Positions 969-28,621 of a stretch of 46,567 nt of DNA are shown piece after piece. The stretch is taken from NCBI GenBank assembly GCA_040755315.1, contig JBFMBF010000003.1:35744-82310 (forward strand), read 5' to 3'. A program made the translations under genes and the position numbers. The notes under the pieces are model-generated. The model saw only the letters and a list, made by a program, of their open reading frames with translations, had not been told where the DNA came from and ran no database searches. Position 1 is the first letter of the stretch. Each line of letters opens with the position of its first letter. Source of the DNA: Candidatus Hadarchaeota archaeon. GTDB lineage: Archaea; Hadarchaeota; Hadarchaeia; Hadarchaeales; Hadarchaeaceae.

Positions 969-972
969 AAAC

Positions 973-1677: not shown

Positions 1678-1696
1678 CTGTCTTTGGTGGTAAAAA

Positions 1697-3667: not shown

Positions 3668-3702
3668 TCCCGCGTAGCTGCACGGCGGGAAAACCGTTAA
3701 AT

Positions 3703-3724: not shown

Positions 3725-3753
3725 TTAGAAGCTGGTTTGGAAAAGGAGTATTA

Positions 3754-4101
3754 ATGAGCAAGACCATAATAGCAATTGCCACCGTGGGGAAAAAAGGATT
3801 GGGAGACGAAGTGGCAGACACCTTCGCCAAAGCAAACACTCTGACTCTGGCCTCAATCGATAAAAACAAAGTTCATCTAGAAGTTTTGGACAACCCGGCC
3901 GCCCCCCTTACCCATGGTCGCGGGCGCACTATCGTTCCTTTCCTCAAGGGCAAAGGGGTGAATGTGGTAGTGGCCAGCGAGTTCGGCATGGGTGCATCGG
4001 CCCTTCTTAAACAATTCAAAATCGGCAAGGTTGTGGTGCAGGCCGGGGTTAAAGTCGACGATATCATAAGAGACGAGAAATACAAGTCGAAGGTGGCATG
4101 A
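3754..4101 (+). CDS. NifB/NifX-family (dinitrogenase FeMo-cofactor-binding domain) protein
   Basis: IAIAT...VADTFAKA...NP...HGRG...GVNVVVASEFGMGA pattern, 115 aa, GGAG RBS. Confidence 0.8.
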   Translation: MSKTIIAIATVGKKGLGDEVADTFAKANTLTLASIDKNKVHLEVLDNPAAPLTHGRGRTIVPFLKGKGVNVVVASEFGMGASALLKQFKIGKVVVQAGVKVDDIIRDEKYKSKVA

Positions 4102-4208
4102 CAAATGAGAATGAAGGTGTACTACATTCTGTGTTTTATAAAACAATTTTTTAGAAAGCCGGATGAAGCAAAAGTTAAATGGGATAAATGATAGGAATGG
4201 GAGACACG

Positions 4209-5567: not shown

Positions 5568-5673
5568 AACAAGGGGGCACACGAGTTTGAGATCAGAAAC
5601 TACAACAAGACTTAATCGGTGCATTCGTCCAGTACTATCCGTGCGAAAAAGAAGTGAAAACTGAGGATTCAAA

Positions 5674-6129
5674 ATGCGGGTCGAAGTACAACACGTTAAA
5701 GGGCTGGCATTCGTAGGGAAAGGGGAAACAAACCACCGAGTCGTGATGGACGGCCCATCTGCATTTGGAGGAACCGAAGCTGGAACTAAACCCATGGAAC
5801 TCGTGCTCATCGCGCTCGGCGGTTGCACGGGTATGGATGTCGTGAGCCTCTTGGAAAAAATGAAAGTGAAGTTTGTCTGTTTTAAAGTAAGCATCACCGC
5901 AGAGCAAAAAGAGGACCATCCCAAAACATTTACAAAGATTCACATAAAATATGTTATTGAAGGAGACGTTCCCGCGGATAAAGTGAAGAAAGCGATAGAT
6001 CTTTCACAACAAAAGTATTGCTCGGTTTCAGAAATCCTCAGAAAGTCAGCCGAGATAACATACGAGTACGAAATTATCAAGTTAACCGAGACTAGAAATG
6101 AGATAGAGAAACTTGGAGAGGAGAAATAA
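5674..6129 (+). CDS. OsmC/YhfA-family protein
   Basis: PMELVLIALGGCTGMDV and KYCSV conserved cysteines. Confidence 0.92.
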   Translation: MRVEVQHVKGLAFVGKGETNHRVVMDGPSAFGGTEAGTKPMELVLIALGGCTGMDVVSLLEKMKVKFVCFKVSITAEQKEDHPKTFTKIHIKYVIEGDVPADKVKKAIDLSQQKYCSVSEILRKSAEITYEYEIIKLTETRNEIEKLGEEK

Positions 6130-6890
6130 TGATAATCGACGAGCTATTGAGCTTGATTGAAAAGCGGAGAAGCCAGCTGGAGAACCTCAAGCTTTTGAGG
6201 GTGTGCGTGAGCCTCTGCTATACTGCGGTGATGCTAGATAACGACTACGTCGGGCTCTGCCACACCCCTACGGAGGACATTGCACACTCTCACTGGGGTC
6301 GCAGACGGGACTTGCACGGCTCCAAGGCTCTAGAAACCGCTCGTCGGGCGAATTCGTTCGACATGATTGAAAAAACAGTTGGTATAGCGACGTTGAACGC
6401 CCTCTCACAACACCTGATGGACTCAGAAGGTTACGAGAGGAAGTTCGATGTGGACATCTTTGATGCTCTCGACGTGAGAGCGAACGACACCGTTGCGGTC
6501 GTGGGATACATACGACCTTTGGTTGGCAAGCTCCGAGAGAAAGGATGCGCAGTCCATGTTTTTGAACGTAACCCTCAACTCAGGGGCGATGCTCTGCCCG
6601 ACACCTTCGCCGACTCAGTCTTGCCCAAAGTGGACGTGGTAATCGCAAGCGGGTCAAGCCTTGCTAATGGCACTATTGACAAAATCCTCGAATCCTCAAA
6701 AAACGCGAGATTTGTGGCGGTGACAGGTCCATCGGCTGGAACGCTGCCAGAGCCGTTTTTCGAGCGAGGAGTGAAAGTGATTGCCGGAGTTCGCGCGAAA
6801 GGTGAAGGCGTGGTGAACGCTGTGGCCGAGGCTAAACATTTCGTGGCTTTCAAGGAACTCGTAGAAAAGTATGTCATGAAAAAAGACTAA
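6129..6890 (+). CDS. DUF364/DUF4213 Rossmann-like putative heavy-metal-chelation protein
   Basis: GIATLNALSQ, VAVVGY, DVVIASGSSLANGT, TGPSA. Confidence 0.85.
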   Translation: MIIDELLSLIEKRRSQLENLKLLRVCVSLCYTAVMLDNDYVGLCHTPTEDIAHSHWGRRRDLHGSKALETARRANSFDMIEKTVGIATLNALSQHLMDSEGYERKFDVDIFDALDVRANDTVAVVGYIRPLVGKLREKGCAVHVFERNPQLRGDALPDTFADSVLPKVDVVIASGSSLANGTIDKILESSKNARFVAVTGPSAGTLPEPFFERGVKVIAGVRAKGEGVVNAVAEAKHFVAFKELVEKYVMKKD

Positions 6891-6910
6891 AAAACATCAC
6901 AACCCTTAAA

Positions 6911-6927
6911 TTTAGGGAAAACCTAAA
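6911..6927. promoter_or_regulatory. DtxR-type operator TTTAGG-N5-CCTAAA
   Basis: Perfect 6-bp arms immediately upstream of the second DtxR gene, next to CTTAAA. Confidence 0.75.
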
Positions 6928-6935
6928 ATCTTGGG

Positions 6936-7388
6936 GTGATTATGGGTACTGGACTAAGCGTAACTGAGAACGAAGCGAGATATCTGAAGTTAATATACAG
7001 AGCGCAGTGTGAGAAATTCACCAAAGTCAGAACTACAGCCGTGGCAAAGTCTCTCGCAGTTAGGCCCGCCACGGTAACCGAGGTAATTCAAAATCTCTCC
7101 GAGAAAAACCTTCTTCGGCACAGGCGTTACCACGGCGTCGAGCTGACGAGAGAGGGCATCGCAGAAGCCCGGAAACTGCTGAGAAAGCACAGGATTTTGG
7201 AGGTTCTCTTTACAGATCTCCTGAAATACGATGCTCAAAACGCCTGCAAAGAAGCTTCTAAACTGGACTACCACGCTTCAATGGAGCTCATCAACGCCAT
7301 TTGCCGAGCCTACAGGCACCCGGAAATCTGCCCGTGTGAAAAGACTATCTTCGGCGACGCGAAGTGCGAGAAAATGGTGATGGAATGA
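6936..7388 (+). CDS. DtxR-family metal-dependent regulator without FeoA domain, probably controlling the ZIP gene
   Basis: RYLKLIY, PATVTE, RKHRILE, CPC; stop overlaps the ZIP start (ATGA). Confidence 0.88.
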   Translation: MIMGTGLSVTENEARYLKLIYRAQCEKFTKVRTTAVAKSLAVRPATVTEVIQNLSEKNLLRHRRYHGVELTREGIAEARKLLRKHRILEVLFTDLLKYDAQNACKEASKLDYHASMELINAICRAYRHPEICPCEKTIFGDAKCEKMVME

Positions 7389-8131
7389 GTGAACTCCTCT
7401 GGATTCTTTTGGCGACCTTCATCGTCAGCTTGGTATCATTCATCGGTGCCACCACGCTGGTCCTGTCGGAAAAGCTGTTAAAGAAGATATTGCTAGCGCT
7501 CATCGGATTCGCCGCAGGAGCTTTGATTGGGGGTGCTTTTCTACATTTGTTGCCAGAAACAATAAGAAGCGGGGTCGCCAGTTTGGAAAACATCTTTATA
7601 ACCGTCATAATCGGTTTTGTGATGTTTTTTGTTTTGGAGAAGTTGCTCTGGCGCCACTGCCACGAACGAGCGTGTCCAATCCACACGTTCGCCTATCTCA
7701 ACCTCTTTGGCGATGGCGTGCACAACTTCATAGACGGCTTAGTTATGGCTGCCAGTTTCGTTGTAAACGTCCCTCTCGGATTGACCACTACGCTGGCAAT
7801 CGCGGCTCACGAAATCCCTCAAGAGATAGGTGACTTGGGTGTCCTCGTCTATGGCGGCCTCAAGCCACGAAAAGCGTTGTTGTTAAATTTTATAACCGCA
7901 TTGACGGCTGTCGCGGGGGGAGTTACAGGATATTATCTCTTTCCATACCTGGGTGGCGCCATGGTATTCCTGCTGCCTTTTGCCGCAGGCGGGTTCATAT
8001 ACATCGCAGCGTCCGATCTGGTCCCCGAGCTTCACAAAGAGTCAAACACAACAAAAACTGTGATGTCCTTCGCGTCATTTTTGGTAGGAGTCATTTTGAT
8101 GTGGGGTATTAAGTTGATATTTGGTGGTTGA
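7385..8131 (+). CDS. ZIP (ZupT)-family metal transporter
   Basis: HNFIDG and HEIPQE signature motifs, about 8 TM segments. Confidence 0.93.
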   Translation: MSELLWILLATFIVSLVSFIGATTLVLSEKLLKKILLALIGFAAGALIGGAFLHLLPETIRSGVASLENIFITVIIGFVMFFVLEKLLWRHCHERACPIHTFAYLNLFGDGVHNFIDGLVMAASFVVNVPLGLTTTLAIAAHEIPQEIGDLGVLVYGGLKPRKALLLNFITALTAVAGGVTGYYLFPYLGGAMVFLLPFAAGGFIYIAASDLVPELHKESNTTKTVMSFASFLVGVILMWGIKLIFGG

Positions 8132-8133
8132 GG

Positions 8134-8550
8134 ATGATTGAGGACGAGGAAACGAGCGAACTGGATAAAATATGCGAAAAGAAGTTAAAGGAGATGAAGA
8201 AGAAATATTTCGGGAAATGGGAGGCTATCGACAAACCCCTAGAGGTCACGGACAAGACTTTTGATGGCACGATTGAGAAGTATCCTGTCGTTGTGGTCGA
8301 TTTTTGGGCCCCGTGGTGCTCGCCCTGTCTCATGGTCGCGCCCATCATCGAGGAACTGGCGCGAGATTATGCTGGGAAGGTGGTATTCGGGAAGGTGAAT
8401 GTGGACGAGAACAAAGAGGTTGCCATGAGGTTTGGCATAATGGCCATCCCCACCTTGCTTTTCTTCAGGGGTGGGAAATTGGTGGATCAGGTGGTCGGAG
8501 CGCTGCCCGAGCAGCAGATTGAGAAGAGCGTTCAAAAACTGCTGGGATAA
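8134..8550 (+). CDS. trxA: Thioredoxin
   Basis: VVVDFWAPWCSPC, cis-Pro IPT, N-terminal helical extension. Confidence 0.93.
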   Translation: MIEDEETSELDKICEKKLKEMKKKYFGKWEAIDKPLEVTDKTFDGTIEKYPVVVVDFWAPWCSPCLMVAPIIEELARDYAGKVVFGKVNVDENKEVAMRFGIMAIPTLLFFRGGKLVDQVVGALPEQQIEKSVQKLLG

Positions 8551-9862: not shown

Positions 9863-10420
9863 TTACTTTTCAGCGCGCGGAACTTGGTTTTTGGGTGTAG
9901 AAATCCCTCGCTTGCGTACATAAACGAGGAAAAGGTATCCAACAATCAATGATGCTAAGAAAGCGAGCAGGATTCTGGTCCCCTCAATCGCCATCCCAAA
10001 AATTGCAATCCCAGCGAAAATCTGCGGCACCTCGACCACGGTGGAGGTAACCAGCATAGTCATCAAAGCCGAAACGCGTATGCCGGCATCTTTGAATCCC
10101 CTTATTATGGGGTAGGCGACGAATGGGCAAGGTGGAAGGATGCTGCCGACCGCCCCCGCTGTGAGCACCTCTCTCGGCTCCGATGTCCCGAAGAGCTTTG
10201 AAACGCGCTCGCGAGTTATCAAATTTTTTACAAGTCCTCCCAGAAACATCGCTACAACAATCGGAATTGCCAGCCTCTGAATCTCTTTAAGGCTGGTTTC
10301 GGCGGATGACTTCGCTGCCTCAGGATTAATCATTAATGTCCCCAAATAGGTGCAGATGGCCACGATTAGCACGGCCCGGTGGCTCCAACTCCCTCCCGTG
10401 ATTTTTCTTACATGCGCCAC
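9863..10420 (-). CDS. DUF318/ArsP-like permease (half-size)
   Basis: Hydrophobic, GSILPPCPFVAYP motif. Confidence 0.72.
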   Translation of the reverse strand: MAHVRKITGGSWSHRAVLIVAICTYLGTLMINPEAAKSSAETSLKEIQRLAIPIVVAMFLGGLVKNLITRERVSKLFGTSEPREVLTAGAVGSILPPCPFVAYPIIRGFKDAGIRVSALMTMLVTSTVVEVPQIFAGIAIFGMAIEGTRILLAFLASLIVGYLFLVYVRKRGISTPKNQVPRAEK

Positions 10421-10421
10421 T

Positions 10422-11027
10422 TCACCACCCCAAGGCTGTCAAAGTAAGATACGCGAGAAATCCGGCGACCAGCGCAGCCGAGACTGTGAGCAACAGCCTG
10501 AGGCCAATTATTTTCGAGTTGAAATACGCGAGGTCACAGGAGAGAACGCAGGCGAATGCCGTCCCGGAGCCAAAAAGCATGCCCATCACCCCGGGAAGGC
10601 CCGCACCAGCTGCGTAGACACCCATTATAATCGGATAAGCAATGAAAGGGCAGGCGGGTAAGATGCAGCCTATGCCAACCCCCACGAGAACCGCCAGGGG
10701 ACCTGCTTGCGCCCCAAGAAACGCGGCGACGGTTTTGGACGGCAGGAGGTTTATCACGGCCCCTGCTATAAAAAGGGCTGCCACTATGTAAACCGCGAAG
10801 TTTCCGAGTGTCTTGAGTGAATCACGGGCACTTTTTTCTGCCACGTTCGGTTTTGTGAGCGAGAAGTAAAGATAGAGAAAAACTGTCATAATTATCATGG
10901 CGTGTACACTGGGGTTGTCCCCAAGAAAAGAAGGGATTTTTCCCTTGAGGGGACCTAGTACCAAGAACGACCCAATCAGGATTGAGGCGACACAGAAACT
11001 TCCCGCCAACGCTTTTGAAACCATCAT
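10422..11027 (-). CDS. DUF318/ArsP-like permease (half-size)
   Basis: GCILPACPFIAYP motif; start placed at ATG 11027 behind a GGGAGAG RBS. Confidence 0.72.
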   Translation of the reverse strand: MMVSKALAGSFCVASILIGSFLVLGPLKGKIPSFLGDNPSVHAMIIMTVFLYLYFSLTKPNVAEKSARDSLKTLGNFAVYIVAALFIAGAVINLLPSKTVAAFLGAQAGPLAVLVGVGIGCILPACPFIAYPIIMGVYAAGAGLPGVMGMLFGSGTAFACVLSCDLAYFNSKIIGLRLLLTVSAALVAGFLAYLTLTALGW

Positions 11028-11152
11028 CTCTCCCGCTAAAAGAAACAAAATAAGTAAAAATAAGCTTGATGTGAACCAAAAATGGTTAACAAAAAGAGTT
11101 TTGAATGTCGGGTTGATGGAGTTGTATGGGCGAGCGCAAAAAAGAGTCAAGG

Positions 11153-11929
11153 ATGTATGAGACAATTAGCGCAGAGTTCAAAAAAATGGTGAGACGCCAC
11201 AAATTCGCAAACAGGGCGGTCCGTTGCAGGATAATTGCGAGAGGTTTTGCTACCCGCCCCCCCGCGGCTTTTTCAACAGGGTTTACTGAACAATACTTTA
11301 AGATGCCATCCGAAGAATACGCGCTGGCAAGAGGAAATGAGGTCATTCTGAGGTGCGAGTTCAAGGGTTGTTATGGGGATGCCTTCACCGACGAGCCGAA
11401 GCCGTTCGTAGGAAAACTTTCAGATGTGGAAAACATGCCCCTTGAAAGCAGCACGGACCGGGCCGTCTACTTCGCGACTTTGAATGCGGTTTTCAGCTAC
11501 TTGGGACTCCGCGACAGCGTCCACTGTAAAAAAGAAAAGCCGGAAGCTTGTGGCAAACAGTTAGTCAAATATATTGCCGACAACTTCGGTGAGAAAGTTG
11601 TCGTGGCGCATATCGGCTACCAGCCCGGCCAGGTAGAAGCGTGCACAAAACTTTTCAAAAATTACGTGACAGATTTAAACCCCAAAAACATTGGGAAGAG
11701 AAAGTTCGGGTGCAAGATTCTGGGCGGCAACAAAAACAAAGAGGTGATTGAAAAAGCAGATGTCGCATCCATAACCGGAAGCACTATTGTCAACGGGAGC
11801 CTACCTCAACTGCTAGAGTGGTGCAACTTGTACAGGACTGAACCAATCGTCTATGGGGTTACGATAAGCGCTGCCGCGAAGATACTAAAGCTAAGGCATT
11901 ATTGCCCTTACGCGCGTAGTACACCTTAG
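11153..11929 (+). CDS. DUF364-like Rossmann-fold protein
   Basis: RAVYFATLNA, HIGYQP, ITGSTIVNGS, YGVT. Confidence 0.75.
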   Translation: MYETISAEFKKMVRRHKFANRAVRCRIIARGFATRPPAAFSTGFTEQYFKMPSEEYALARGNEVILRCEFKGCYGDAFTDEPKPFVGKLSDVENMPLESSTDRAVYFATLNAVFSYLGLRDSVHCKKEKPEACGKQLVKYIADNFGEKVVVAHIGYQPGQVEACTKLFKNYVTDLNPKNIGKRKFGCKILGGNKNKEVIEKADVASITGSTIVNGSLPQLLEWCNLYRTEPIVYGVTISAAAKILKLRHYCPYARSTP

Positions 11930-13797: not shown

Positions 13798-14567
13798 ATG
13801 AAGGTGACCAAAATTATTGATATTTCAAGCAAAAAAGGGCGCGGCAAGGGACAACAGGTTTCCATAGTCCGCGGGGGGATGTTCATTTCTGGGTTGCTTC
13901 TGATTCTAACGCTGCCTCCAGTAATGGCCGTTTTGATTGCAAACGCAGTTCTGAGCTGGGGCGTGTCTTCTTTGAACTACGCGCTTTACTTTGCTCCTGT
14001 TTTCGAGGAGTTCGCCAAGGGGCTGAGCCTTTTCTTCGTCGTGGCCTTGGTGTACAAAAAAATATTTCTCGTGTGCCTCTCGTTCAGGAACAACTACGTT
14101 TGTCTGGCGTTCGATCAAATTGTGTCCGGAAAAATCCGCAAAAAATGGCCAGCCTGAACAAAGCCATGATGATTTCTTTAATCGGTTGGTCAGTCGGACT
14201 TGTTTTTGGAATGATTGAAAATTTGAGCTACTTCCTAGAAAGGGGAGTGCCATTGACCGAAAGGCTGGGGACACCGTTCAATCACGCTTTTATGACATGG
14301 ATGTTCAGCATAGGGATTTACTTCTGGAAAACCAAAAGCAAATTGGGCTGGTTGAAGCTTGGTCTTTTCTACTCCATTCCAGTCCTCTTGCACTCCAGCT
14401 GGAATCACGGGTCGCTCACGGGATTGATAAACATCCTGTCGGTTATATGGATTTTCGTTGCGGCGGGTATTGCCTTTTACCTGCTGTGGCTGGAGCTGAA
14501 ACTGCGAAACATAGTTTTTGTTAGAACACCGAAAAAACCGCCCGCTACAATAAGAAAAGTTTTTTGA
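13798..14567 (+). pseudogene. PrsW-family intramembrane glutamic protease split by a frameshift
   Basis: APVFEEFAK in ORF 13798..14157; FGMIEN, NHAF and LHSSWN in the -1-frame ORF 14073..14567. Confidence 0.75.
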
Positions 14568-16390: not shown

Positions 16391-16463
16391 CCTAATTTTT
16401 GCTGAATCTTGGTCCATTGGAAAAATAGATATAACCCCATTCTTAGACTTCACGAGTGGTCAA

Positions 16464-17774
16464 ATGCTCCGTATTCAGGGATTCAGAGGCGGGATTCATC
16501 CCTCTTACTCAAAGCTGGCCTCCAGCAGGGTCATCGAGAAGGCCAAGCCGCCGAAGGTCGCAGTGTTGCCCCTCCGCCAATACGTCGGCGTCCCATGTAC
16601 GGGGCTCGTAAACCTTGGAGATCACGTGAAAGTGGGTCAGAAGATAGCCGACTGCGAGGCGCCTTTATCAGTCCCAATACACTCGAGCATCTCTGGAACC
16701 ATCGTGGAACTGGCGTTGAAACCAACACCTACAGGTGAGGAGCTCCAGAGCATAGTTGTGGAGTCTGACGAGAAGGAGGAGTGGGTTGAAATCTCAGGGT
16801 TGGATGTTGAAAAGGCTTCTAGGGAGGAAATCCTGGCCAAAATCAGGGAGAGCGGGATAGCTGGCATGGGTGGTGCTGCCTTCCCCACCCACGTGAAGCT
16901 CAACCCGCCGAAAGATAAGAATGTGGAAACACTCATAATCAACGGGGTGGAGTGCGAGCCTTTCATCACGGGAGACCATAGGCTGATGCTCGAAGCTGGG
17001 GACAAAATCATAAGTGGCGCGAAGATAGCTGCAAAGGTCCTTGATGTTCGGAAAATCGTGATTGCCGTCGAAGACAACAAGCCTGACGCCGCCGAAAACA
17101 TGAGAAAGCTGGCAGGCGAAGGCATCGAAGTCAGGATTTTAAAGACCAAGTACCCCCAAGGGGACGAAAGGCACCTAATCAAGGCAATTTTGGGCAGGGA
17201 GGTCCCAGAAGGAGGACTGCCGTTTGACGTCGGGGCGATTCTCTTGAACGTGGGGACAGCAAAAGCGATACATGAAGCGGTCTACGAGGGCAAGCCACTG
17301 GTCGAGAGAGTCGTTACCGTTGCTGGAGATGTAAAAGAGCCAAAGAACATGCTCACGAGGATTGGCACTCCATTCTCACAGCTGGTGGAGGAGTGCGGCG
17401 GGCCTGTCGGAGAGATAAGAAAAATGGTGTGCGGCGGGCCCATGATGGGGATTGCCCAGCCAGCCGATGCCCCAGTGGTAAAGGGCACCACTTGCGTTCT
17501 GGTATTCAACGAGGCTAATGCAGGGGAGGAGCGGGAACTGCCATGCATAAGGTGTGCCAGGTGCGTCGAGGCCTGCCCGATGAGCCTCATGCCTACCATC
17601 CTCGCCCACCTCTCAGAACGGGGAAATGTTGAGGGGGTGCTTGACTACAAAATAATGAGTTGCGACGAGTGTGGATGCTGTTCCTACGTCTGCCCGTCAA
17701 AAATCCCGCTGGTCCAGAAGATCAGGCTGGGGAAAGTCCTCGTGAGGTCGAAGGCTAAGAATGTGAAAAAATGA
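16464..17774 (+). CDS. rnfC: Rnf complex subunit C
   Basis: FRGGIHP, GMGGAAFPTHVK, NGVECEP, YPQG, GGPMMG, two 4Fe-4S motifs (CIRCARC, CDECGCC). Confidence 0.96.
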   Translation: MLRIQGFRGGIHPSYSKLASSRVIEKAKPPKVAVLPLRQYVGVPCTGLVNLGDHVKVGQKIADCEAPLSVPIHSSISGTIVELALKPTPTGEELQSIVVESDEKEEWVEISGLDVEKASREEILAKIRESGIAGMGGAAFPTHVKLNPPKDKNVETLIINGVECEPFITGDHRLMLEAGDKIISGAKIAAKVLDVRKIVIAVEDNKPDAAENMRKLAGEGIEVRILKTKYPQGDERHLIKAILGREVPEGGLPFDVGAILLNVGTAKAIHEAVYEGKPLVERVVTVAGDVKEPKNMLTRIGTPFSQLVEECGGPVGEIRKMVCGGPMMGIAQPADAPVVKGTTCVLVFNEANAGEERELPCIRCARCVEACPMSLMPTILAHLSERGNVEGVLDYKIMSCDECGCCSYVCPSKIPLVQKIRLGKVLVRSKAKNVKK

Positions 17775-18670
17775 AGCTTCTTGTCTCATCCTGGCCACAC
17801 ATAAGGGACAAAATCACGACGAGGGAGGTGATGATGGCGGTGGTGATAGCACTCCTTCCAGCCACTGCTTTTGGCGTTTGGTCTTTCGGCCTACACGCCC
17901 TTCTCATCGTGATAACTTCCATCACAACAGCTGTGATAACAGAGTTCGTTGCTTTCAAGCTCATGGGAAAAGAGCCCACTCGGGACGGCAGCGCCGTCGT
18001 GACAGGGCTGCTGCTCGCGCTCACTCTGCCGCCGACCCTGCCCCTTTGGACGGCCGCGGTCGGGGCAGCGTTCGCCATAAGTATAGGAAAGTTTGCTTTT
18101 GGGGGCCTTGGGCGAAACATCTTCAATCCAGCTCTTGTCGGAAGGGCTTTCCTATCCATCTCATGGCCAGCGCTGATGATCACCTGGGTGATTCCTGGCA
18201 CGGCCACAACCACGGCCACCCCCCTGACAGGCACAACCATCAGCAATGCAAACCTGTTCATTGGAAATGTCGCGGGCTCCCTTGGTGAGGTCTCGAAGTT
18301 CGCCATCCTGATTGGCGGGCTCTACCTCATTGTCATGAAATACATAGACTGGAGAACCCCGCTTTTCTATATCGGGACGGTCGGGGTGCTCACCCTGGCG
18401 CTCGGGCAGGACCCGATTTTCCACATGTTGGCGGGCGGACTCTTCCTCGGGGCGTTCTTCATGGCGACAGATTATGTTACAACCCCGATGACGAGCAGGG
18501 GCAGGATAATTTTCGCGGTAGGCGGCGGCAGCCTGGTGGTCGCCATCAGGCTTTTCGGCGGGCTCCCTGAAGGCGTGGCCTACTCCATCCTCATAATGAA
18601 TGCATTCACACCTTTGATAGAGAGGTACACCAGGCCCAAGGTCTACGGCACTGGAAAGGTGAAAAAATGA
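17771..18670 (+). CDS. rnfD: Rnf complex subunit D
   Basis: FGGLGRNIFNPA, TTATPL FMN-attachment site, GSLGEVS, FMATDYVTTP. Confidence 0.95.
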   Translation: MKLLVSSWPHIRDKITTREVMMAVVIALLPATAFGVWSFGLHALLIVITSITTAVITEFVAFKLMGKEPTRDGSAVVTGLLLALTLPPTLPLWTAAVGAAFAISIGKFAFGGLGRNIFNPALVGRAFLSISWPALMITWVIPGTATTTATPLTGTTISNANLFIGNVAGSLGEVSKFAILIGGLYLIVMKYIDWRTPLFYIGTVGVLTLALGQDPIFHMLAGGLFLGAFFMATDYVTTPMTSRGRIIFAVGGGSLVVAIRLFGGLPEGVAYSILIMNAFTPLIERYTRPKVYGTGKVKK

Positions 18671-19191
18671 AATTAGGGGTCCACACCAAATCTGTAATCG
18701 TGCTGACCGTAACCTGTGCATTCTGGGCCGCAGCGCTTGCAGTCGTCTACAACGTTACAAAACCGATTATAGAGTCTACTGAAAAAGTGGAGATTGACGC
18801 GACCTTGAGAAGAATATTTCCAGACGCCGATAATTTCATTGAAGAGCATGAACATTACACCTCTCTCAAGGAAGGCGTTCCTATCGGGTATGCCACTATC
18901 TCAAGGGGGTATGGCTACGGTGGTGAGATGAAGCTTCTAGTTGGCATCGGGCTGGACAACAGAGTCGTTGGCGTGAGTGTAATATCAAATTCAGAAACGG
19001 CGGGAGTGGGATCCAGAATAACAGAAAATACCTTCCTCGGCCAGTTTATTGGACAAACCGCCGACAACCTGAAACTGAGAAAAGACGGCGGGCAGATAGA
19101 CGCCGTCACCGGGGCCACGATAAGCTCAACCGCCGCCGTGGAAGCCGTTTACAATGGTGTTAAATTGCTGGAAAACATGACTGGAGGATGA
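18667..19191 (+). CDS. rnfG: Rnf complex subunit G
   Basis: N-terminal TM, GYGG, ETAGVG, DAVTGATISS flavinylation motif. Confidence 0.95.
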   Translation: MKLGVHTKSVIVLTVTCAFWAAALAVVYNVTKPIIESTEKVEIDATLRRIFPDADNFIEEHEHYTSLKEGVPIGYATISRGYGYGGEMKLLVGIGLDNRVVGVSVISNSETAGVGSRITENTFLGQFIGQTADNLKLRKDGGQIDAVTGATISSTAAVEAVYNGVKLLENMTGG

Positions 19192-19793
19192 GCCGTGTGA
19201 AGCTGAAAGAACTAACAAAAGGTATACTGCGGCAGAACCCCGTGTTCGTCCTTGTCCTAGGGCTCTGCCCAGTGCTCGCCATCACAACGAGGGTTGAAAA
19301 TGCAATAGGGATGACGGCGGCTTTTACTTTTGTTATCCTGGGCTCGAACCTTCTTATTTCAACCCTGAAAAAGTTCATCCCACATCAAGTGAGAATCCCC
19401 ACATACATCGTGATAATCGCCAGTTTTGTGACAATAATAGAGTTCATACTACACGCATTTGCCGTGAACATTTACACTCAGTTGGGGGTCTTCCTCCCCC
19501 TGATCACCGTGAACTGCATAGTCCTCGGAAGGGCTGAGGCCTTCGCGTCAAAACATCCTGTCAGGGATTCCATAATGGACACTGCCGGGATGAGCGTTGG
19601 GTTCGGCCTAGCAGTCATAACAATCTCCGCCATAAGGGAGTTCTTCGGGACAGGTAAAATTGTGCTCTTTGGTTACCAACTCACGCCGACGGTGCTCTCA
19701 TCTCCCGTCGGAGGGATGGTGCTGCCGATGGGAGCATTTTTAACAATCGGGGTACTGCTAGCCATCTTCCGGAAGACCGGGGTGCTAAAATGA
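19188..19793 (+). CDS. rnfE: Rnf complex subunit E
   Basis: NPVFVLVLGLCP, PLITVNCIVLGRAEAFA. Confidence 0.95.
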   Translation: MSRVKLKELTKGILRQNPVFVLVLGLCPVLAITTRVENAIGMTAAFTFVILGSNLLISTLKKFIPHQVRIPTYIVIIASFVTIIEFILHAFAVNIYTQLGVFLPLITVNCIVLGRAEAFASKHPVRDSIMDTAGMSVGFGLAVITISAIREFFGTGKIVLFGYQLTPTVLSSPVGGMVLPMGAFLTIGVLLAIFRKTGVLK

Positions 19794-20374
19794 GTGAAAA
19801 TCTACTGGCCATCGCCATCTCCGCAGCGCTGATAAACAACATCATTCTAACAAGGTTCCTAGGCCTCTGCTCGTTCTTCGGCGTCTCGACAAAACTTAAA
19901 AACTCCATGATGATGGGGTTGGCCGTGACCTTTGTCATGGTTTCTTCCTCAGTAATCACTTGGGCGATTTACCAACTGGTTCTTGTTCCACTTCAGATAC
20001 AGTACCTGCGGTTGGTGGTTTTCATCCTAGTGATCGCCTCATTCGTCCAGTTGCTTGAGATGGTGATAACGAAAGTTTCGCCGGCGCTCCACAAAGGCTT
20101 TGGAATCTATCTACCGTTGATTACTGTAAACTGTGCTATTCTTGGAATCACTTTGATAAATGTTGAAGTCGAAAGATATTCCTTTTTGGGTTCGACCGTG
20201 AGCTCTGTTGCCACTGGGCTCGGATATTCCCTCGCCATCCTTCTTATGGCCAGCATAAGAACGCGGCTGGAGCTTTACGAACAACCGAAATCTTTTCATA
20301 ACCTCCCGCTAGCATTTATAGTGGCGGCCATCTTGGCCATGGCTTTCCAAGGATTCAGTGGGATGGGAAGATGA
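19790..20374 (+). CDS. rnfA: Rnf complex subunit A
   Basis: NNIILTRFLGLC, GIYLPLITVNCAILG. Confidence 0.95.
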   Translation: MSENLLAIAISAALINNIILTRFLGLCSFFGVSTKLKNSMMMGLAVTFVMVSSSVITWAIYQLVLVPLQIQYLRLVVFILVIASFVQLLEMVITKVSPALHKGFGIYLPLITVNCAILGITLINVEVERYSFLGSTVSSVATGLGYSLAILLMASIRTRLELYEQPKSFHNLPLAFIVAAILAMAFQGFSGMGR

Positions 20375-21201
20375 TTGCGGAAGTTGCCGTGCTGGGCGGA
20401 CTTGGCTTCGTGTTTGCGGTGGGACTAGCCATCGCCTCGAAAAAGCTGGAGGTAAAGGTCGACGAGAAGCTGGAAAAGGTGAAAGAGCTTCTTCCTGGCA
20501 GGAACTGCGGTGCCTGCGGCTTTGCCAGCTGTGACGAGTATGCTGAAGCGCTGGTCAACGACCCCTCGCTGATCAAGGGGTGTAGGCTTGTGGCCGACGA
20601 GGAGAGAGAAAAAATTGCGGAAGTGGTTGGCTCTGAAAGCGGAGAGGCAGAACACCACTGCGCCACCCACCTCTGCAGGGGCGGCTCGGGTTTAAAGTTT
20701 GAATACCAAGGGATTGAAAGCTGCGCCGTGGCTGCCGGCGTCGGCGGGGGCTTCTTGGAGTGCAAGTACGGGTGCCTCGGCTTTGGAGACTGCGTCGAGG
20801 CCTGTCCATTTGGCGCGATAGAGCTGGTGAACGGCCTCCCGCAGATTGACGATGAGAAGTGCACGGGTTGCGGCCTCTGTGTTAAGGAGTGCCCGCGGCA
20901 TGTCATCGCGCTTTCGCCCCGCAGCGCGAAGCTTGTGGTCAGGTGCCACTCGCCTGAGCCAGCGAAGGTGGTGGCGAAGGCGTGCAAAAACGGGTGCTTC
21001 ACCTGTAACATCTGCGAGCGAACGTGCCCGGTCCACGCGATAAAGATGGAAAACAACCTTCCAGTGATTGACCAAGCGACCTGCACGGCCTGCGGAACCT
21101 GTGTGGAGAAGTGCCCAAGGCATGTTCTGGAGCTGGTGAAATTCAGCGAAGCCAGCGGGGCCGGACTTTCAGCCGCTCCCGGTTGCCACACTTGTCACTA
21201 A
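20371..21201 (+). CDS. rnfB: Rnf complex subunit B (polyferredoxin)
   Basis: LPGRNCGACGFASC, CKYGCLGFGDC and several CxxCxxCxxxCP motifs. Confidence 0.95.
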   Translation: MIAEVAVLGGLGFVFAVGLAIASKKLEVKVDEKLEKVKELLPGRNCGACGFASCDEYAEALVNDPSLIKGCRLVADEEREKIAEVVGSESGEAEHHCATHLCRGGSGLKFEYQGIESCAVAAGVGGGFLECKYGCLGFGDCVEACPFGAIELVNGLPQIDDEKCTGCGLCVKECPRHVIALSPRSAKLVVRCHSPEPAKVVAKACKNGCFTCNICERTCPVHAIKMENNLPVIDQATCTACGTCVEKCPRHVLELVKFSEASGAGLSAAPGCHTCH

Positions 21202-23337
21202 AAGAGGGTAGTCCCAGGCGTCTGTTCTCACTATTTGTCCTTCAGCCGAAACTATGAGCCCCTTCAGCCCAAGGTTGTCCAAAAGCGTCTTTCCTTCTGC
21301 CGGACCCAGCACAAAAGTTGCCGTGCTCAAGGCGTCGGCCCTGACCGAGTTCTCAGCTATCACGGTTACGCTGATGCTGTTGTCGGCCGACCTTCCAGTC
21401 CTAGGGTCAATGATGTGGTGAACCCTGGTGCTCCCTAGAAAATAGAACCTTCGGTAGTCCCCTGAGGTAGATATGGAGAAGTTCTCAAGGTCAAGCACTC
21501 CAAGATATTCCCAGTCTATCCTCGGGTGCTGGATGGCTATCTTCCAAACCTTCGGGCCAAATCCTTGTATTTCTCCGCCTATCGCCACAAGTCCGTTCTC
21601 CACCCCTGCCTGGCGGAGGATGTCGGCGGCCCTGTCCACGGCATACCCTTTGGCTATCCCGCCAAGCGTGACCTTCATGCCAGTCTTCTGGAACCTGACC
21701 GTCCCGCTATTATCGTCCGTCAAAAGATTCTCCCAGCCTACAAGCACCATGGCTTCCTGAAGTTCTGATGGGCTTGGCTCTCTCCCTGTGATTTTCACCT
21801 TGTCCATCCACAGCTCAACCAGAGGCTCAACTGTCAGGTCGAAGGCACCGTTGGATATGCTTGACGCCCACTTCGCCCTTTTTATCGTTGACATGACATC
21901 TGGGGAGACTTTCACCCATTCGGTGCCGCTGCTGTTCAAAGCGTAGATTTCGCTTGCCGAATTGGTTGTAGACATGACTTCATCAAGCCTGTTTATCTCG
22001 TCAAAAGCGGCCCTGACGGCACTCACCGCCTTTTCTGTATTTTCATCCTCTGCCGTCACAGTGACAGTGGTGCTCATGGCGACCCCCGTTCCCTGCACCC
22101 GGCTTCCGCTGATTTCTATCGCCGGTGACCTAGCTTCAACAGAACCAAGAAGACCGGCTGTAACCAGCCCCATCGCGATTAAACCACCGGCCAGCTTTCC
22201 GACCGACCCTCGACCCATCAGCTTTGGTATGAAAAACAGGCCCGATAGCATGGCGATGTTGAGAAGAAGCAAGGCGACGGCTAAACCGAGAAGGCCGAGG
22301 TGCCTCCCGAGCGCGGATATTCCAACGACCCCTACGCCGATTGCCAGCAGGCGTGAGCCAAGCACCACCCCTGTGTTTTCCTTGGAGTACATCTCAGAGC
22401 TTTTTATAACGACTGCCGTGGCCGGGATAAGAGCCAGCGCCATCAGCTGGACCGCTATAATCCCCTCTGTGAATCCCGGAAAGGCTAGCGGAATCAACAC
22501 TGGGGCCAAAAGGAACACTGCCACTGCCAGAACAAAAGAAAAGATGATCCCCACATGCTCAACTCTCTTCGTGTCGGCCCCGGAAGATCTCTCTGGCAAA
22601 AGGTAGAAGAACAGTACCTGGGGGAGGACGCCGAGCAGGACGAAGATTCTGTATGCAAAATTGTAGTAGCCCAGAAGCGCCATCCCAAAGAGGGAACCTA
22701 TCAGGATTTTGTCAAGGAAGCTCACGGCGGCTCCACCTACGTCGGCTCCCCAAGCGCCATAAATGAAACCGCGCTTCTCCTTAATTTTACCAAAGCTGGT
22801 CCGAAGGTGTCTGAGAACACCTGCGCTGAAGACCAAGTAAACAGCGGCCATCCCAACCAATATCCCGGCCGTAGACCCTGATATCCAGTAAAACAACAGT
22901 GGGATTGCAAGGGACAAGGCTCTGACGCCGACCCACAACCACATGTATTTTTTGTAATTCCTTCTGGCCAGCTCAAGATGAACCGCCATGGAAAAAACAC
23001 TCAGGCCCACCACGAGGAGCCCCGACGGTAACCCCAGTACAAGAGCGGTCACCGCCCCAGCAGCTACGCTCAACACCGAAACGAGAAAAACAAGGCCACC
23101 CAAGAGTTCCTGGCTTTTTTCTTTTTGGAAGTACGTGACGATGGTTTTCCCGAGCCCGACTGAGCAGATGACGGATATTATTGTGGCTATTGAAACAAGC
23201 CAGCTCAGGTAGCCATACGCCACTGGGTGGATGATGGCGGCCAACACCATCCAGAAGATGGCGCCAAGTAGCGTTGCCGAAATCTGGGCGACCGACACCT
23301 GCGCAAGCCCGCGTCTATTTTCAGGTGCTGGCTCCAT
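21169..23337 (-). CDS. apbE: Fusion of an N-terminal Wzx/MOP-superfamily transporter and a C-terminal ApbE FAD:protein FMN transferase
   Basis: N-terminal ~380 aa polytopic with Wzx-like motifs (LLGAIFWMVLA..YG..S; DKILIG..G...LGYY..AYR); one further TM; ApbE motifs AMST, FDLTV, LGGIAKGYAVD, GGEI, STSGDY, HIIDPRTG, ADALST; single uninterrupted ORF. Confidence 0.88.
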   Translation of the reverse strand: MEPAPENRRGLAQVSVAQISATLLGAIFWMVLAAIIHPVAYGYLSWLVSIATIISVICSVGLGKTIVTYFQKEKSQELLGGLVFLVSVLSVAAGAVTALVLGLPSGLLVVGLSVFSMAVHLELARRNYKKYMWLWVGVRALSLAIPLLFYWISGSTAGILVGMAAVYLVFSAGVLRHLRTSFGKIKEKRGFIYGAWGADVGGAAVSFLDKILIGSLFGMALLGYYNFAYRIFVLLGVLPQVLFFYLLPERSSGADTKRVEHVGIIFSFVLAVAVFLLAPVLIPLAFPGFTEGIIAVQLMALALIPATAVVIKSSEMYSKENTGVVLGSRLLAIGVGVVGISALGRHLGLLGLAVALLLLNIAMLSGLFFIPKLMGRGSVGKLAGGLIAMGLVTAGLLGSVEARSPAIEISGSRVQGTGVAMSTTVTVTAEDENTEKAVSAVRAAFDEINRLDEVMSTTNSASEIYALNSSGTEWVKVSPDVMSTIKRAKWASSISNGAFDLTVEPLVELWMDKVKITGREPSPSELQEAMVLVGWENLLTDDNSGTVRFQKTGMKVTLGGIAKGYAVDRAADILRQAGVENGLVAIGGEIQGFGPKVWKIAIQHPRIDWEYLGVLDLENFSISTSGDYRRFYFLGSTRVHHIIDPRTGRSADNSISVTVIAENSVRADALSTATFVLGPAEGKTLLDNLGLKGLIVSAEGQIVRTDAWDYPLLVTSVATGSG

Positions 23338-23353: not shown

Positions 23354-24103
23354 TCACTCCACAAAAACAAATTTCAGTGCCAACAGCAGGATTGCTCCAA
23401 ACAGGAACGCGACGAAAGATGTCGCAGTCTTGGAGGTTTCCTGTTGCTTGTGCATCTCCGGCACCAGATTGGACGCAGCGATGTAGAGAAAACTCCCCGC
23501 GGCGAACGGGAGGAGAAGTGGAATAACGCCGCCGAAATGGGGCAGGAAAAAGAACCCGACAATACCGCCGACGAGGGCCGTAAGCGCCGTGGCAAAGTTC
23601 ATCAGAAGAGCCTTGCGCGGCTTCAAGCCGCCGTAAACTATCACACCAAAGTCGCCGAGTTCCTGCGGGATTTCATGGACGGCGACCGCGAATGTTGTTA
23701 CCACCCCAAGCCGGATGTCCACCAAAAAGCTGGCTGCTATCGCAAGCCCGTCTATGAAGTTGTGGATGCCGTCGCCTATGAGGTTGAGATAGGCGAACGT
23801 GTGGATGGGACACTTCCGCTCGCGGCAGCGGCGCCATATCAGCCGTTCCATCACGAAGAAGACTGCGAAACCTACTATCACCACCGTAAATACTGTGGTT
23901 GTTCCTCCTGATTGTGGGTTTCCAAGAGCTTCCGGGATGAGGTGCAAAAAAGCGCCGCCCATCAGCGTGCCTGCAGCGAGTCCAAAAAGAACATGCAGAA
24001 GCCGGTCTAGCAGTCTTTCGGAAATCACCAGCGTGAGCGCTCCGGTAAAAGATATCAAACTGATTCCCGTGGTTCCAGCAATTATCCAGAGTAACTCGCT
24101 CAT
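23354..24103 (-). CDS. ZIP (ZupT)-family metal transporter (paralog of 7385..8131)
   Basis: HNFIDG, HEIPQE. Confidence 0.93.
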   Translation of the reverse strand: MSELLWIIAGTTGISLISFTGALTLVISERLLDRLLHVLFGLAAGTLMGGAFLHLIPEALGNPQSGGTTTVFTVVIVGFAVFFVMERLIWRRCRERKCPIHTFAYLNLIGDGIHNFIDGLAIAASFLVDIRLGVVTTFAVAVHEIPQELGDFGVIVYGGLKPRKALLMNFATALTALVGGIVGFFFLPHFGGVIPLLLPFAAGSFLYIAASNLVPEMHKQQETSKTATSFVAFLFGAILLLALKFVFVE

Positions 24104-24166
24104 TGCATCAGACTAACTTTGCTCGCCATTTTAAAAGCTTGCAAAAAGAGGTTAAACCGTGCCAGC

Positions 24167-24433
24167 ATGGATGAAGCCGAACTGAAGGAAATTATGAAAA
24201 AATACGCGGCATCGCAAGGTTTCAAGCTGAACCCGGACGAAGAGGTAACGGGTGCCGTCATCAAGGGACTTTTAACAAACGTTGAGAAATACGGCTTCCG
24301 GTACTGCCCATGCCGCCCCGTGATTGGGGACAGAAAGGCAAACACCCTAAACATCTGCCCATGCGCCTGGCACAAGGACGAAATCAGGAAGATGGGACAC
24401 TGCCACTGCTGGCTTTTTGTCAAGGGAAAATAA
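24167..24433 (+). CDS. Ferredoxin-thioredoxin reductase catalytic subunit
   Basis: YCPCR...CPC...CHCWLF signature. Confidence 0.92.
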   Translation: MDEAELKEIMKKYAASQGFKLNPDEEVTGAVIKGLLTNVEKYGFRYCPCRPVIGDRKANTLNICPCAWHKDEIRKMGHCHCWLFVKGK

Positions 24434-24446
24434 GAAATGTGATGAA

Positions 24447-24830
24447 ATGGATAAGGAATTGGCGGAAATACGCATGAAAAAGATGAAGGAGCTGGAGAAA
24501 AAACATCTGGGCAAGCCTGTCGAGGTTACCGACAAAACATTTGATCATATCACTAACGACAACCCCGCAGTGGTGGTTGACTTCTGGGCCGAGTGGTGCG
24601 CGCCTTGCCGCCTCATGGGGCCTGTGATAGAGGAGCTAGCGAAAAAATACTCGGGGAAGATTGTTTTTGGGAAGCTGAACGTGGACAAGAATTCTGAAAC
24701 CCCACCGAAACACAACATAGCTGCAATCCCTACCCTCTTATTCTTCAAGAACGGGGAGGTTGTTGATCAGGTTGTAGGTTTTGTGCCCAACCCCCAGCTG
24801 GACAAAAAGCTAATGAATCTGCTGAAATAA
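24447..24830 (+). CDS. trxA: Thioredoxin
   Basis: DFWAEWCAPC, IPT. Confidence 0.93.
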   Translation: MDKELAEIRMKKMKELEKKHLGKPVEVTDKTFDHITNDNPAVVVDFWAEWCAPCRLMGPVIEELAKKYSGKIVFGKLNVDKNSETPPKHNIAAIPTLLFFKNGEVVDQVVGFVPNPQLDKKLMNLLK

Positions 24831-24846
24831 CCCGGGCCGGAAGAGT

Positions 24847-25290
24847 ATGGTTACTATGGTCAAAGCTGAAGAAACCCACCTCACAAAAAGGCAGTTTGAA
24901 GTCCTGAGGATGAAAGTGGAGGGAAAAACCCTTTCTGAGATTTCCAGAACTCTTGGAACTAGCAGGGCGAACGTCAGCCGACTGGCGAGGGTGGCCGAAC
25001 GCAACATCGAACGAGCAAAAAACACCTTGCGGCTGATTTCAACTATCAGGTGGCCGGTAAGGGTGGAGGCCAAGGTCGGCTCGAACGTTTACGAGATCTC
25101 CGACGCCGTGTTCAGCAAGGCCGATGAAAGCAGAATCAGAATCTCGCACAACTACGCTGAGCTTGTGAGGCTGATAACGGAGGCCCTCGGTAGGAAAAAT
25201 ATCCGCCGCAGGAAGGCCACCAAGGATTTCACTGTCTTCATCAGCAGGGAAGGCAAGGTAGAAGTCATTGTTGGATTAGGGGGGTCCTGA
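24847..25290 (+). CDS. Tfx-family DNA-binding protein
   Basis: LTKRQFEVL...LGTSRANVS...A.RNIERAKNTL. Confidence 0.85.
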   Translation: MVTMVKAEETHLTKRQFEVLRMKVEGKTLSEISRTLGTSRANVSRLARVAERNIERAKNTLRLISTIRWPVRVEAKVGSNVYEISDAVFSKADESRIRISHNYAELVRLITEALGRKNIRRRKATKDFTVFISREGKVEVIVGLGGS

Positions 25291-27203: not shown

Positions 27204-27419
27204 TTACCAATCCATGTACAGGTCATCTACACCTGATATTAGGTCCTGGTTTTCGAAGTCCAAGTAGTCCTCGAGGTCCGAGATGGCTTGGTCTGTTTCA
27301 TCCAACTCTGTCACAGCCACTTGCGTCGCCGGTCTAATGATGAAGTACACGCCTACCGCTATTAGCACCACGGCAATCACTAATACCGCTCCCATTTGCT
27401 TTGCTCCCATCTTGTTCAC
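27204..27419 (-). CDS. Small membrane-anchored acidic protein, hypothetical
   Basis: N-terminal TM and acidic helix; start overlaps the stop of the upstream gene. Confidence 0.65.
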   Translation of the reverse strand: MNKMGAKQMGAVLVIAVVLIAVGVYFIIRPATQVAVTELDETDQAISDLEDYLDFENQDLISGVDDLYMDW

Positions 27420-28621
27420 CCCTGAACTTCACCGGACTCTATGGTTGCCGTTGCGCCTGTCCAAGCTCTGTTCTCGTACCTGTTTTCGCCGAACGTGCGG
27501 TACCAGCCGGTCCCTGTAAGTGTTGCAGTGCCTCTTCCGTGGGCGTACAGCTTGATGTTGTTGCCAGTTATGCTAACCCAGATTTCGTGTCCCCTTATTT
27601 TTGCTGAACCATAGCCAGTATATTGCACGTCGCCGTTGTCTAAGGTTGTTTTTGTGCCCGTGCCCGTCGTGCTGACGTTCGCATTGGATGAAACAATTAG
27701 AACACTGTTTTCCATCGCCGTAATCTTCACAAGCCCTGTGCCTTGGAGATATGCAGAACCGCTGCCCTGCGCCACCAATGTGCCAGAACCCGTAATCGTC
27801 ACGCTGCCGTACCTTGTCCTCATGTCAACTATGATGTTCTTGAGGTCCCTGAAGGCTTCCTTGAGGTAGCTCACCGCGGTTCTCACGTGAAGCGCGACGA
27901 TTCTGAAGATTTCTGCGAAAGTCACGTTGTCTGTGATCTCTTCTACCTTTATCTTCGCGTTCTCGATTCTCTGCTGTGCCAGTTCCAGCTTTGAGTCGAA
28001 GCTGGCAAGCCAGGTGTCAAGCTGGGTTGTGTCGATTCCGTTGTCCTTCAGCTGCTGGATCTTCGCCTCTAGCATCGCTGCGAACGCCTGCCCTCTCCAG
28101 AGAACAACTTCCGCAGCGGCGACCATCAGCCGTGCTGATATGTACTTGACTCGAACCCTGATGGATTTCCAGTAGTCCCACATCGCTCTCGCTGTGGCCT
28201 TTAACCCGGTATCCTCTGAAGTTTCGAAGCTGTAGCCCTGTATTGTGGCGATGTAATTGTCCAGCTCTGCTACGAGAGGCGCCTTTTCGTTTTCCGACAG
28301 TCCACGCGTCGCCTGAACACTCGATTTCAACTGCTCCAAGTACTTCAACATCATGTCTTTGGCCTCAGCTGCCGCAGCTCTCGCTTTGGTCTGGAGATCT
28401 GACCAGTTTGCACCGCTCCTGTCAGTGATCCACGCCGATCTCGCCCTCTGGAAGCCCGCCACCGCGCTCAACCACTCGGAACGCGCAGTGTTGAAATCTG
28501 CATTTCTGCTCAGCCACGTCGCCCGCCTGCTGGACCAGCTGACTTCCTGAGCTCCAGTAGCTGGGACCGCCACGGTCAGCATCAGCGCGACCATCGCCAG
28601 CGCCATTATTTTTGTGTTCAT
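27416..28621 (-). CDS. Secreted hypothetical protein: long helical/coiled-coil region plus Gly/Thr-rich beta-repeat C-terminus
   Basis: Signal peptide, about 240 aa amphipathic helices, repeated GxG motifs (GSGTL, GSGSA, GTGLV, GYGSA, GRGTA). Confidence 0.75.
   Translation of the reverse strand: MNTKIMALAMVALMLTVAVPATGAQEVSWSSRRATWLSRNADFNTARSEWLSAVAGFQRARSAWITDRSGANWSDLQTKARAAAAEAKDMMLKYLEQLKSSVQATRGLSENEKAPLVAELDNYIATIQGYSFETSEDTGLKATARAMWDYWKSIRVRVKYISARLMVAAAEVVLWRGQAFAAMLEAKIQQLKDNGIDTTQLDTWLASFDSKLELAQQRIENAKIKVEEITDNVTFAEIFRIVALHVRTAVSYLKEAFRDLKNIIVDMRTRYGSVTITGSGTLVAQGSGSAYLQGTGLVKITAMENSVLIVSSNANVSTTGTGTKTTLDNGDVQYTGYGSAKIRGHEIWVSITGNNIKLYAHGRGTATLTGTGWYRTFGENRYENRAWTGATATIESGEVQG

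Follow-up and report, generated by a model that had tools for sequence, protein, structure and literature searches.

A 46,567-nucleotide stretch of DNA from Candidatus Hadarchaeota archaeon (assembly GCA_040755315.1, contig JBFMBF010000003.1, positions 35,744 to 82,310), hereafter the window, carries a gene for a 722-residue protein in which a polytopic transporter domain, a further membrane helix and a complete ApbE domain are joined, and which converges on an rnfCDGEAB operon. The chemistry of ApbE, the transfer of flavin mononucleotide (FMN) from flavin adenine dinucleotide (FAD) to proteins, and its need for FAD outside the cytoplasm are established in the literature. Comparison of the fusion with its homologs leads us to propose, with a probability of about 0.65, that its transporter domain is a repurposed Wzx-lineage flippase domain that exports FAD to the tethered ApbE. 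The features of the locus, in window coordinates, are as follows.

21169..23337, minus strand: fusion gene, 722 residues (Wzx-lineage transporter domain, 13th helix and ApbE)
22216..23316, minus strand: predicted 12-helix MOP-fold domain, residues 8-374, N-terminus inside (AlphaFold2, fold matches, positive-inside pattern)
22648..22650, minus strand: Arg230, helix 8 (Arg or Lys in 56/56 fused rows of the alignment; Gln in 135/138 unfused rows)
22606..22608, minus strand: Phe244, helix 8 (invariant in 56/56 fused rows; mostly polar in unfused rows)
22135..22206, minus strand: 13th membrane helix, residues 378-401, predicted to carry ApbE outside (AlphaFold2, charge pattern)
21271..22077, minus strand: ApbE domain PF02424, residues 421-689 (Pfam; motifs GGIAKG, TSGDY, HHIIDP, DALST)
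21415..21417, minus strand: His641, invariant in 29 fusion proteins (alignment)
16464..21201, plus strand: rnfCDGEAB operon, in the order rnfC-D-G-E-A-B (Pfam and family models)
17771..18670, plus strand: rnfD, predicted flavinylation target with TTATPL motif (translation, Pfam)
18667..19191, plus strand: rnfG, predicted flavinylation target with FMN_bind domain and DAVTGAT motif (translation, Pfam)

Gene Structure and Locus

The gene fills one stop-free frame, with an ATG at 23337 that gives 722 residues; an alternative TTG start lies 33 bases upstream and would produce an overlap with the ZIP gene. A first-pass annotation, made from the letters of the window, had described a single open reading frame (ORF) encoding a polytopic domain, an extra transmembrane helix and a complete ApbE domain, and the ORF, Pfam and AlphaFold2 bear this out. 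It was equally right about the convergence on rnfB, which ends at 21201 and overlaps the end of the fusion gene on the opposite strand by 33 bases, about the FMN-attachment motifs in RnfG and RnfD, which are present in the translations, and about glycosyltransferase genes, none of which was found by Pfam among the 61 window ORFs scanned. The fusion gene is the sole ApbE of the host genome, which is 86.6% complete, and its closest homolog (86% identical) is named Ca. Hadarchaeota by its source.

In a metagenome-type assembly such as this one, it might be suspected that two genes were joined by an error of assembly or sequencing, and the annotation had proposed looking for two separate genes in relatives. 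ApbE is present in 31 of the 33 N-domain homologs of 397-1264 residues, the other two being one frameshifted and one unfused protein, and the junction is thereby independently supported. The same fusion recurs in dozens of independent assemblies, which excludes an assembly artefact; we give a joining error virtually no credence and regard it as refuted.

Predicted Fold and Membrane Topology

The AlphaFold2 model of the full protein, obtained with a 29-sequence alignment (predicted local distance difference test, pLDDT, 84; predicted template modelling score, pTM, 0.78; pLDDT below 50 in the linker at 394-403), places 12 membrane-length helices within residues 8-374, a further one at 378-401 and the ApbE fold after them. 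A hydropathy scan produced 12 peaks, the polar helix 7 giving none, and the 13th helix is similar to the lone anchor found at the N-terminus of unfused ApbE relatives. Across the alignment, even loops average 2.5-4.7 Lys plus Arg residues and odd loops 0.03-0.5, an alternation that predicts an N-terminus inside and an ApbE domain outside the cell. The extracytoplasmic ApbE that the annotation had envisaged is thus supported as a prediction.

Modeled separately, the N-domain (pTM 0.86) is predicted to adopt a 12-helix, two-lobe MOP fold. In VIA comparisons MATE scored Z 30.3 (root-mean-square deviation (rmsd) 4.4, 375 residues aligned) and WzxE scored Z 29.4 (rmsd 4.1, 367 aligned); MATE-family matches spanned Z 28-30 and were tied with WzxE, and because of this tie the fold cannot separate Wzx from MATE. 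Foldseek placed WzxE at the top (E 2e-7), followed by MurJ and MATE proteins.

The ApbE half is far more readily classified. PF02424 matches with E 5e-83 and 279 bits against a cut-off of 25.6, covering profile positions 1-258 of 266, and Foldseek comparison with solved ApbE structures gave E 5e-19 and template modelling scores of 0.83-0.86 normalized by target. His641, TSGDY, GGIAKG and Asp668 are invariant or nearly so across 29 fusions and were aligned to three solved ApbEs; His641 probably corresponds to His257, the catalytic residue of the V. cholerae enzyme. The closest unfused ApbEs, which are up to 66% identical, are single-anchor proteins (P0199-P0236), several of them named ANME-1 or Methanophagales, and they group with one fused protein (P0026).

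Wzx Lineage of the Transporter Domain

A hidden Markov model scan, proposed in the first-pass annotation, returned ApbE strongly, Polysacc_synt_3 (PF13440, residues 167-233) barely at the cut-off with E 4e-5, Polysacc_synt (PF01943, residues 10-235) below the cut-off with E 6e-4, and no MatE (PF01554) match to the fusion gene; the sole MatE match in the genome was to the other Wzx, on contig C1. A profile of the family recognises the host's separate 517-residue Wzx (E 4e-20), whereas for E. coli YeeO the value is no better than E 4, and the Atlas neighbours of the N-domain are Polysacc_synt clusters. The N-domain profile had 0 matches among PDB sequences, neither profile nor hhalign comparison gave a significant match to WzxE, MurJ or YeeO, and there is no NCBIfam model for the domain. 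By its sequence affinities, the transporter domain is of the Wzx lineage and not of MATE. The annotation had called it a Wzx/MOP-type transporter with the MATE flavin exporters as kin: the MOP fold and the Wzx lineage stand, MATE descent does not, and since the profile reaches YeeO only at E 4, Bfe and YeeO are to be taken as analogies rather than orthologs.

Single Origin and the Unfused Sister Flippases

A profile search yielded 275 clusters at E<1e-30, mostly unfused proteins of 375-395 residues among the best 150 of the 275, which were the ones listed. In trees of 197 rows (FastTree) and 46 rows (IQ-TREE, rooted on seven chosen distant unfused rows), all fused proteins together with one unfused protein (P0039) form one clade (support 100/99), which is sister (99/97) to an unfused group (100/99) whose known loci adjoin genes for glycosyltransferases of families 2 and 4 (GT2 and GT4). 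The fusion has a single origin within an otherwise unfused family. Because the unfused sisters adjoin glycosyltransferases, the transporter most likely descends from a glycolipid flippase, and its function would have changed if it exports FAD. The annotation had considered a sugar-flippase role to lack local context; this holds at the fused loci examined, where no glycosyltransferase was seen within 3 kb, but the closest unfused relatives do sit in glycosylation loci.

Three further observations concern the unfused family. The sisters with Gln at position 230 are repeatedly preceded by an FAD-dependent oxidoreductase, in addition to GT2/GT4 genes (L027:2417-3442, L058:3487-4503, L079, L088); we take this oxidoreductase to be geranylgeranyl-reductase-like. 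Compact Wzx-family domains also occur in proteins of 629-1671 residues whose remainder has no Pfam match (P0069, P0087, P0112, P0164, P0180). Lastly, an unfused protein with Arg and Phe at the helix-8 positions (P0183, named Chloroflexi) has, in two assemblies, an accession consecutive to that of a 65-residue N-terminal ApbE piece with its own helix, and in one assembly the same cluster is represented by a full 340-residue ApbE at a distance of 20 accessions. Such consecutive numbering is suggestive at most.

Helix-8 Substitutions and Genomic Context

Position 230 carries Arg or Lys in all fused rows and in 0/138 unfused rows. Among the 28 columns conserved at 85% or more in unfused rows, Q230R is the sole clean swap, Gly157 being also lost, to mixed residues; a comparable swap of a conserved column was seen in 1 of 39 unfused subclades (Tyr to Phe). 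Besides Phe244, the residues typical of the fused clade include His37 (54/56 fused rows) and Trp46 (55/56). Counted from the start of helix 8, Arg230 is in register with E. coli MurJ Arg270, a correspondence of motif spacing and not of superposition; in the available text of PMC6465408, MurJ Arg270 corresponds to Arg255 of a proposed diphosphate-binding triad. Against a congener, in a single pairwise comparison, the ratio of nonsynonymous to synonymous substitution rates (dN/dS) was 0.081 for the N-domain and 0.092 for ApbE, and the N-domain is under purifying selection like ApbE.

The locus tally comprised 75 rows including duplicates, 48 with Arg at position 230, 1 with Lys, 20 with Gln and 6 unreadable. 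ApbE is present in 45 of the 48 Arg-type rows, the other three ending at contig edges; rnf or a flavinylation target lies within 7 kb in 30/48, and GT2/GT4 within 3 kb in 0/48. Among the Gln-type rows the counts are reversed, with ApbE or rnf in 0/20 and GT2/GT4 within 3 kb in 13/20, although the glycosyltransferase queries came from two Gln-type loci, which favours the Gln side and could miss other glycosyltransferase families. The annotation had raised the possibility that fusion homologs sit in glycosylation loci; none of the fused loci examined has GT2/GT4 within 3 kb. The fused clade no longer shows the glycosyltransferase context, and in it a conserved helix-8 Gln has given way to Arg or Lys.

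Distribution and Co-occurrence with Flavinylation Targets

Sixty-six genomes of the phylum Hadarchaeota were scanned; they are related and the counts are not independent. An N-domain match was found in 19 of them. Seventeen are fusions, of which two are truncated by contig ends and one has an in-frame TGA close to its start; the remaining two are an unfused flippase in G038 and a 45-residue fragment of the sister type in G056. True ApbE (E<1e-20) occurs in exactly the 17 fusion genomes and always as the fusion; 16 genomes whose PF02424 matches were weak (E 1e-6 to 1e-3) were left out of this count, and so was G022, where a weak match attained the cut-off only with neighbours. FMN_bind is present in 16/17 fusion genomes versus 1/49 others (G056), and the carrier lacking it (G031) has a contig that stops inside rnfE. 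Genes of rnf lie in the fetched DNA at 14 of the 17 loci, the remaining three stopping at contig edges.

A scan of GTDB produced 24 loci, of which the 15 not labelled Hadarchaeota or uncultured archaeon were examined and comprised 12 fusions, one gene cut before ApbE and two unfused genes. Bacterial fusions come from Dehalococcoidia, Synergistaceae and Actinomycetota including Hakubella, and they are rare, with 3 strong matches among 401 Dehalococcoidia-class genomes and 3 among 262 Synergistia-class genomes. FMN_bind was found in 9 of the 13 bacterial carriers, a single ApbE in 12 and EetB (PF07456), a component of another FAD exporter, in 2; in G072, EetB follows a second, unfused ApbE. EetB was found in 0/66 phylum genomes including the host, with a control positive in 2/14. 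The partners vary, from a full Rnf to RnfCD after a molybdopterin enzyme, to NrfD with ferredoxin and a double FMN_bind protein, to another double FMN_bind protein on a metagenome contig. The link to flavinylation targets, which the annotation had suggested looking for in other genomes, is conserved across four phyla, archaeal and bacterial (three of them bacterial), despite rearrangement and change of partner. The annotation's picture of FAD supply in a cell without a periplasm is not general, as three Synergistaceae genomes carry the fusion. Synergistaceae are diderm.

Several of these loci have features of separate interest. Two Dehalococcoidia genomes that lack an FMN_bind match encode RnfC and RnfD alone, preceded by a molybdopterin enzyme and a ferredoxin (L046:1320-4446, L050:1324-4450). 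At L076:9435-10927 a double FMN_bind protein directly follows the fusion and is divergent from a His-rich membrane protein that has no Pfam match and looks MsrQ-like by eye. Broken copies, due to assembly errors or decay, are found at L022, L078, P0014 and L037:5466-5606, and include an in-frame TGA near the start (G012), an ApbE in two pieces, a frameshift after the N-domain and the 45-residue sister-type fragment of G056.

Proposed Function and Alternatives

According to the proposal made at the outset, the transporter domain would move FAD from the cytoplasm to the outside, where the tethered ApbE, predicted to lie there, would use it to attach FMN to RnfG and RnfD. Arg230 may bind the FAD pyrophosphate, with Phe244, Trp46 and His37 helping to bind the FAD rings, and tethering would be expected to raise the local supply of FAD; both FAD as the cargo and the outward direction are what we infer from the combined evidence. 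A bolder version, put forward tentatively and somewhat doubtful in our estimate, is that a flippase became a cofactor exporter largely through the helix-8 Gln-to-Arg change and a few aromatic gains, giving rise to a one-gene, horizontally mobile FAD-channelling machine that feeds the ApbE site, possibly in exchange for adenosine monophosphate (AMP).

A number of observations weigh against FAD export to a tethered ApbE. The nearest unfused relatives of the transporter domain, about 40-46% identical, lie beside glycosyltransferases, and the ANME-1/Methanophagales ApbEs carry a single anchor of their own. Targets are missing from the available DNA in 18/48 Arg-type rows, many of them on short contigs, from the 3-6 kb flanks in a Dehalococcoidia group (three Dehalococcoidia-class genomes carry rnf operons elsewhere), and, as far as FMN_bind is concerned, from 4 of the 13 bacterial carriers, whose genomes are incomplete and two of which have RnfD. 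In one homolog some 75 additional residues separate helix 13 from ApbE, which argues against a rigid hand-off. Arg230 owes its placement solely to the spacing of motifs, as no profile alignment to MurJ or WzxE reached significance; and a helix-8 Arg does not single out FAD, since MurJ, a lipid-diphosphate flippase, uses one too.

Three other accounts of the domain were considered. It might serve flavinylation with another cargo or direction, by re-importing AMP (possibly in FAD/AMP exchange), by salvaging FMN or riboflavin or by delivering riboflavin to RnfD, and this would fit the co-occurrence and residue evidence equally well; AMP is both a product and an inhibitor of ApbE according to the available text of a 2025 review (PMC12052999). 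Lumazine synthase was moreover not found in the host (G000) or in one congener (G031), whether through loss or incompleteness, with riboflavin kinase present. However, it is found in 15/17 fusion carriers and 60/66 phylum genomes, so that most carriers make flavin and an import reading based on flavin auxotrophy is weakened, and the unmet need of ApbE is for FAD outside, in a phylum where EetB was not detected. Characterised MOP proteins mostly export, which counts in the same direction, and on balance we hold another cargo or direction to be unlikely.

We consider it quite unlikely that the domain is still a lipid-linked glycan flippase, spread with an rnf cassette after a single chance fusion or acting in glycosylation of Rnf subunits. 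The Wzx-lineage sequence, the sister clade in GT2/GT4 loci and a helix-8 Arg typical of diphosphate-lipid flippases (available text of PMC6465408) would all be expected of such a protein, and a GT4 gene lies about 6.4 kb away in 2/48 Arg-type rows, probably representing one locus. The contrast in GT2/GT4 context between Arg-type and Gln-type rows speaks against it, the queries having been drawn from Gln-type loci, as do the intact transfer of the fusion to three bacterial phyla with different glycans and redox partners and the presence in the host of another Wzx among sugar-modification genes. Nor is transport strictly needed to explain the topology: any odd number of helices puts ApbE outside, and a large anchor, or a scaffold bringing ApbE to RnfD/RnfG during assembly, would suit RnfD, a membrane target that ApbE must reach. 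Yet in close unfused ApbEs the counterpart of helix 13 seems to suffice as an anchor, all 12 other helices and the family-invariant residues are retained at a dN/dS of 0.08, and the unfused Arg/Phe transporter persists with an accession number next to that of a separately anchored ApbE piece, which makes an anchor or scaffold very unlikely. FAD export to the tethered ApbE remains the reading that we prefer.

Other Features of the Window and Host Genome

The locus is set among genes for metal uptake and redox functions (window 69-8550 and 23354-25290; Pfam), namely FTR1, FeoB, two DtxR-type repressors, two ZIP transporters, thioredoxins, the ferredoxin-thioredoxin reductase beta chain and Tfx. 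Elsewhere in the window, a PrsW-family protease spans two overlapping frames (13798-14567, plus strand), likely through a frameshift; two neighbouring ORFs each have a partial ArsP_1 permease match (9863-11165, minus strand); and a 401-residue ORF with a signal-like N-terminus has no Pfam match (27416-28621, minus strand). A second, partial rnfC-D-G on host contig C46 (951-3541) is 88% identical in DNA to window 16404-18997, with RnfD 95% and RnfG 98% identical; it ends at the contig edge and is either a paralog or derived from a related strain that entered the bin.

Significance and Comparison with Known Systems

The annotation knew of no description of this fusion, and none was found in the literature searched, which left most subscription papers aside and included the available parts of PMC9973259, PMC11706664, PMC9012536, PMC12174285, PMC11323493 and bioRxiv 10.1101/2024.03.13.584918; the gene-cluster tables of PMC8238504 may list such genes. 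Databases name the fusion protein simply ApbE. The route of FAD to ApbE is called "still obscure" in the available text of the 2025 review (PMC12052999), where the ApbE fusions covered are to fumarate reductase; tested exporters in the accessible literature are Bfe of Shewanella and EetB of Listeria, with YeeO described as an exporter in E. coli. With a candidate exporter and ApbE in one polypeptide, the link between export and flavinylation would be open to study with one construct and one point mutant (R230Q), and the Arg-type and Gln-type proteins form a natural pair for asking how MOP flippases change substrate. If true, the proposal would add a third route of FAD export after MATE and energy-coupling factor (ECF) systems, and the first in archaea within the literature searched. 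The fusion is frequent in a single archaeal phylum and seldom occurs in the bacteria searched, so that it cannot account for how most organisms supply FAD.

With the FAD:protein FMN transferases ApbE, Ftp and FmnB (PF02424) the protein shares the full domain, the motifs and nearby RnfD/RnfG targets, the structures compared being T. maritima TM1553 (1VRM), L. monocytogenes FmnB (7ESA) and the V. cholerae enzyme (6NXI); it differs in its anchor, which is a membrane domain of 13 helices where the others have a lipoprotein signal or one helix. The 12-helix MOP fold is shared with the Wzx/PST flippases (PF01943, PF13440; E. coli WzxE, 9G95), and the fusion domain nests inside an uncharacterised compact Wzx/PST family of about 380 residues that is largely archaeal, from which the fused clade is set apart by ApbE, by the lack of glycosyltransferase neighbours and by the changes of Gln230 to Arg and of a polar residue 244 to Phe. 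The MATE flavin exporters Bfe (S. oneidensis SO_0702) and YeeO (E. coli) have the superfamily fold and the proposed cargo in common with the fusion and differ from it in lineage; in the available text of PMC3551548 and PMC5655446 their cargo is flavin, Bfe provides a precedent for FAD export by the MOP family (PMC3551548), and Bfe-type exporters are not apbE-linked (PMC9973259). The ECF FAD exporter EetB-FmnA of Listeria monocytogenes shares the proposed role of delivering FAD to ApbE, and eetB co-localises with apbE and rnf (available text of PMC9973259), but EetB has an unrelated, ATP-driven, multi-subunit fold on separate polypeptides, whereas the fusion is one polypeptide. If the proposed FAD export holds, the fusion would work like EetB or Bfe while belonging to neither family.

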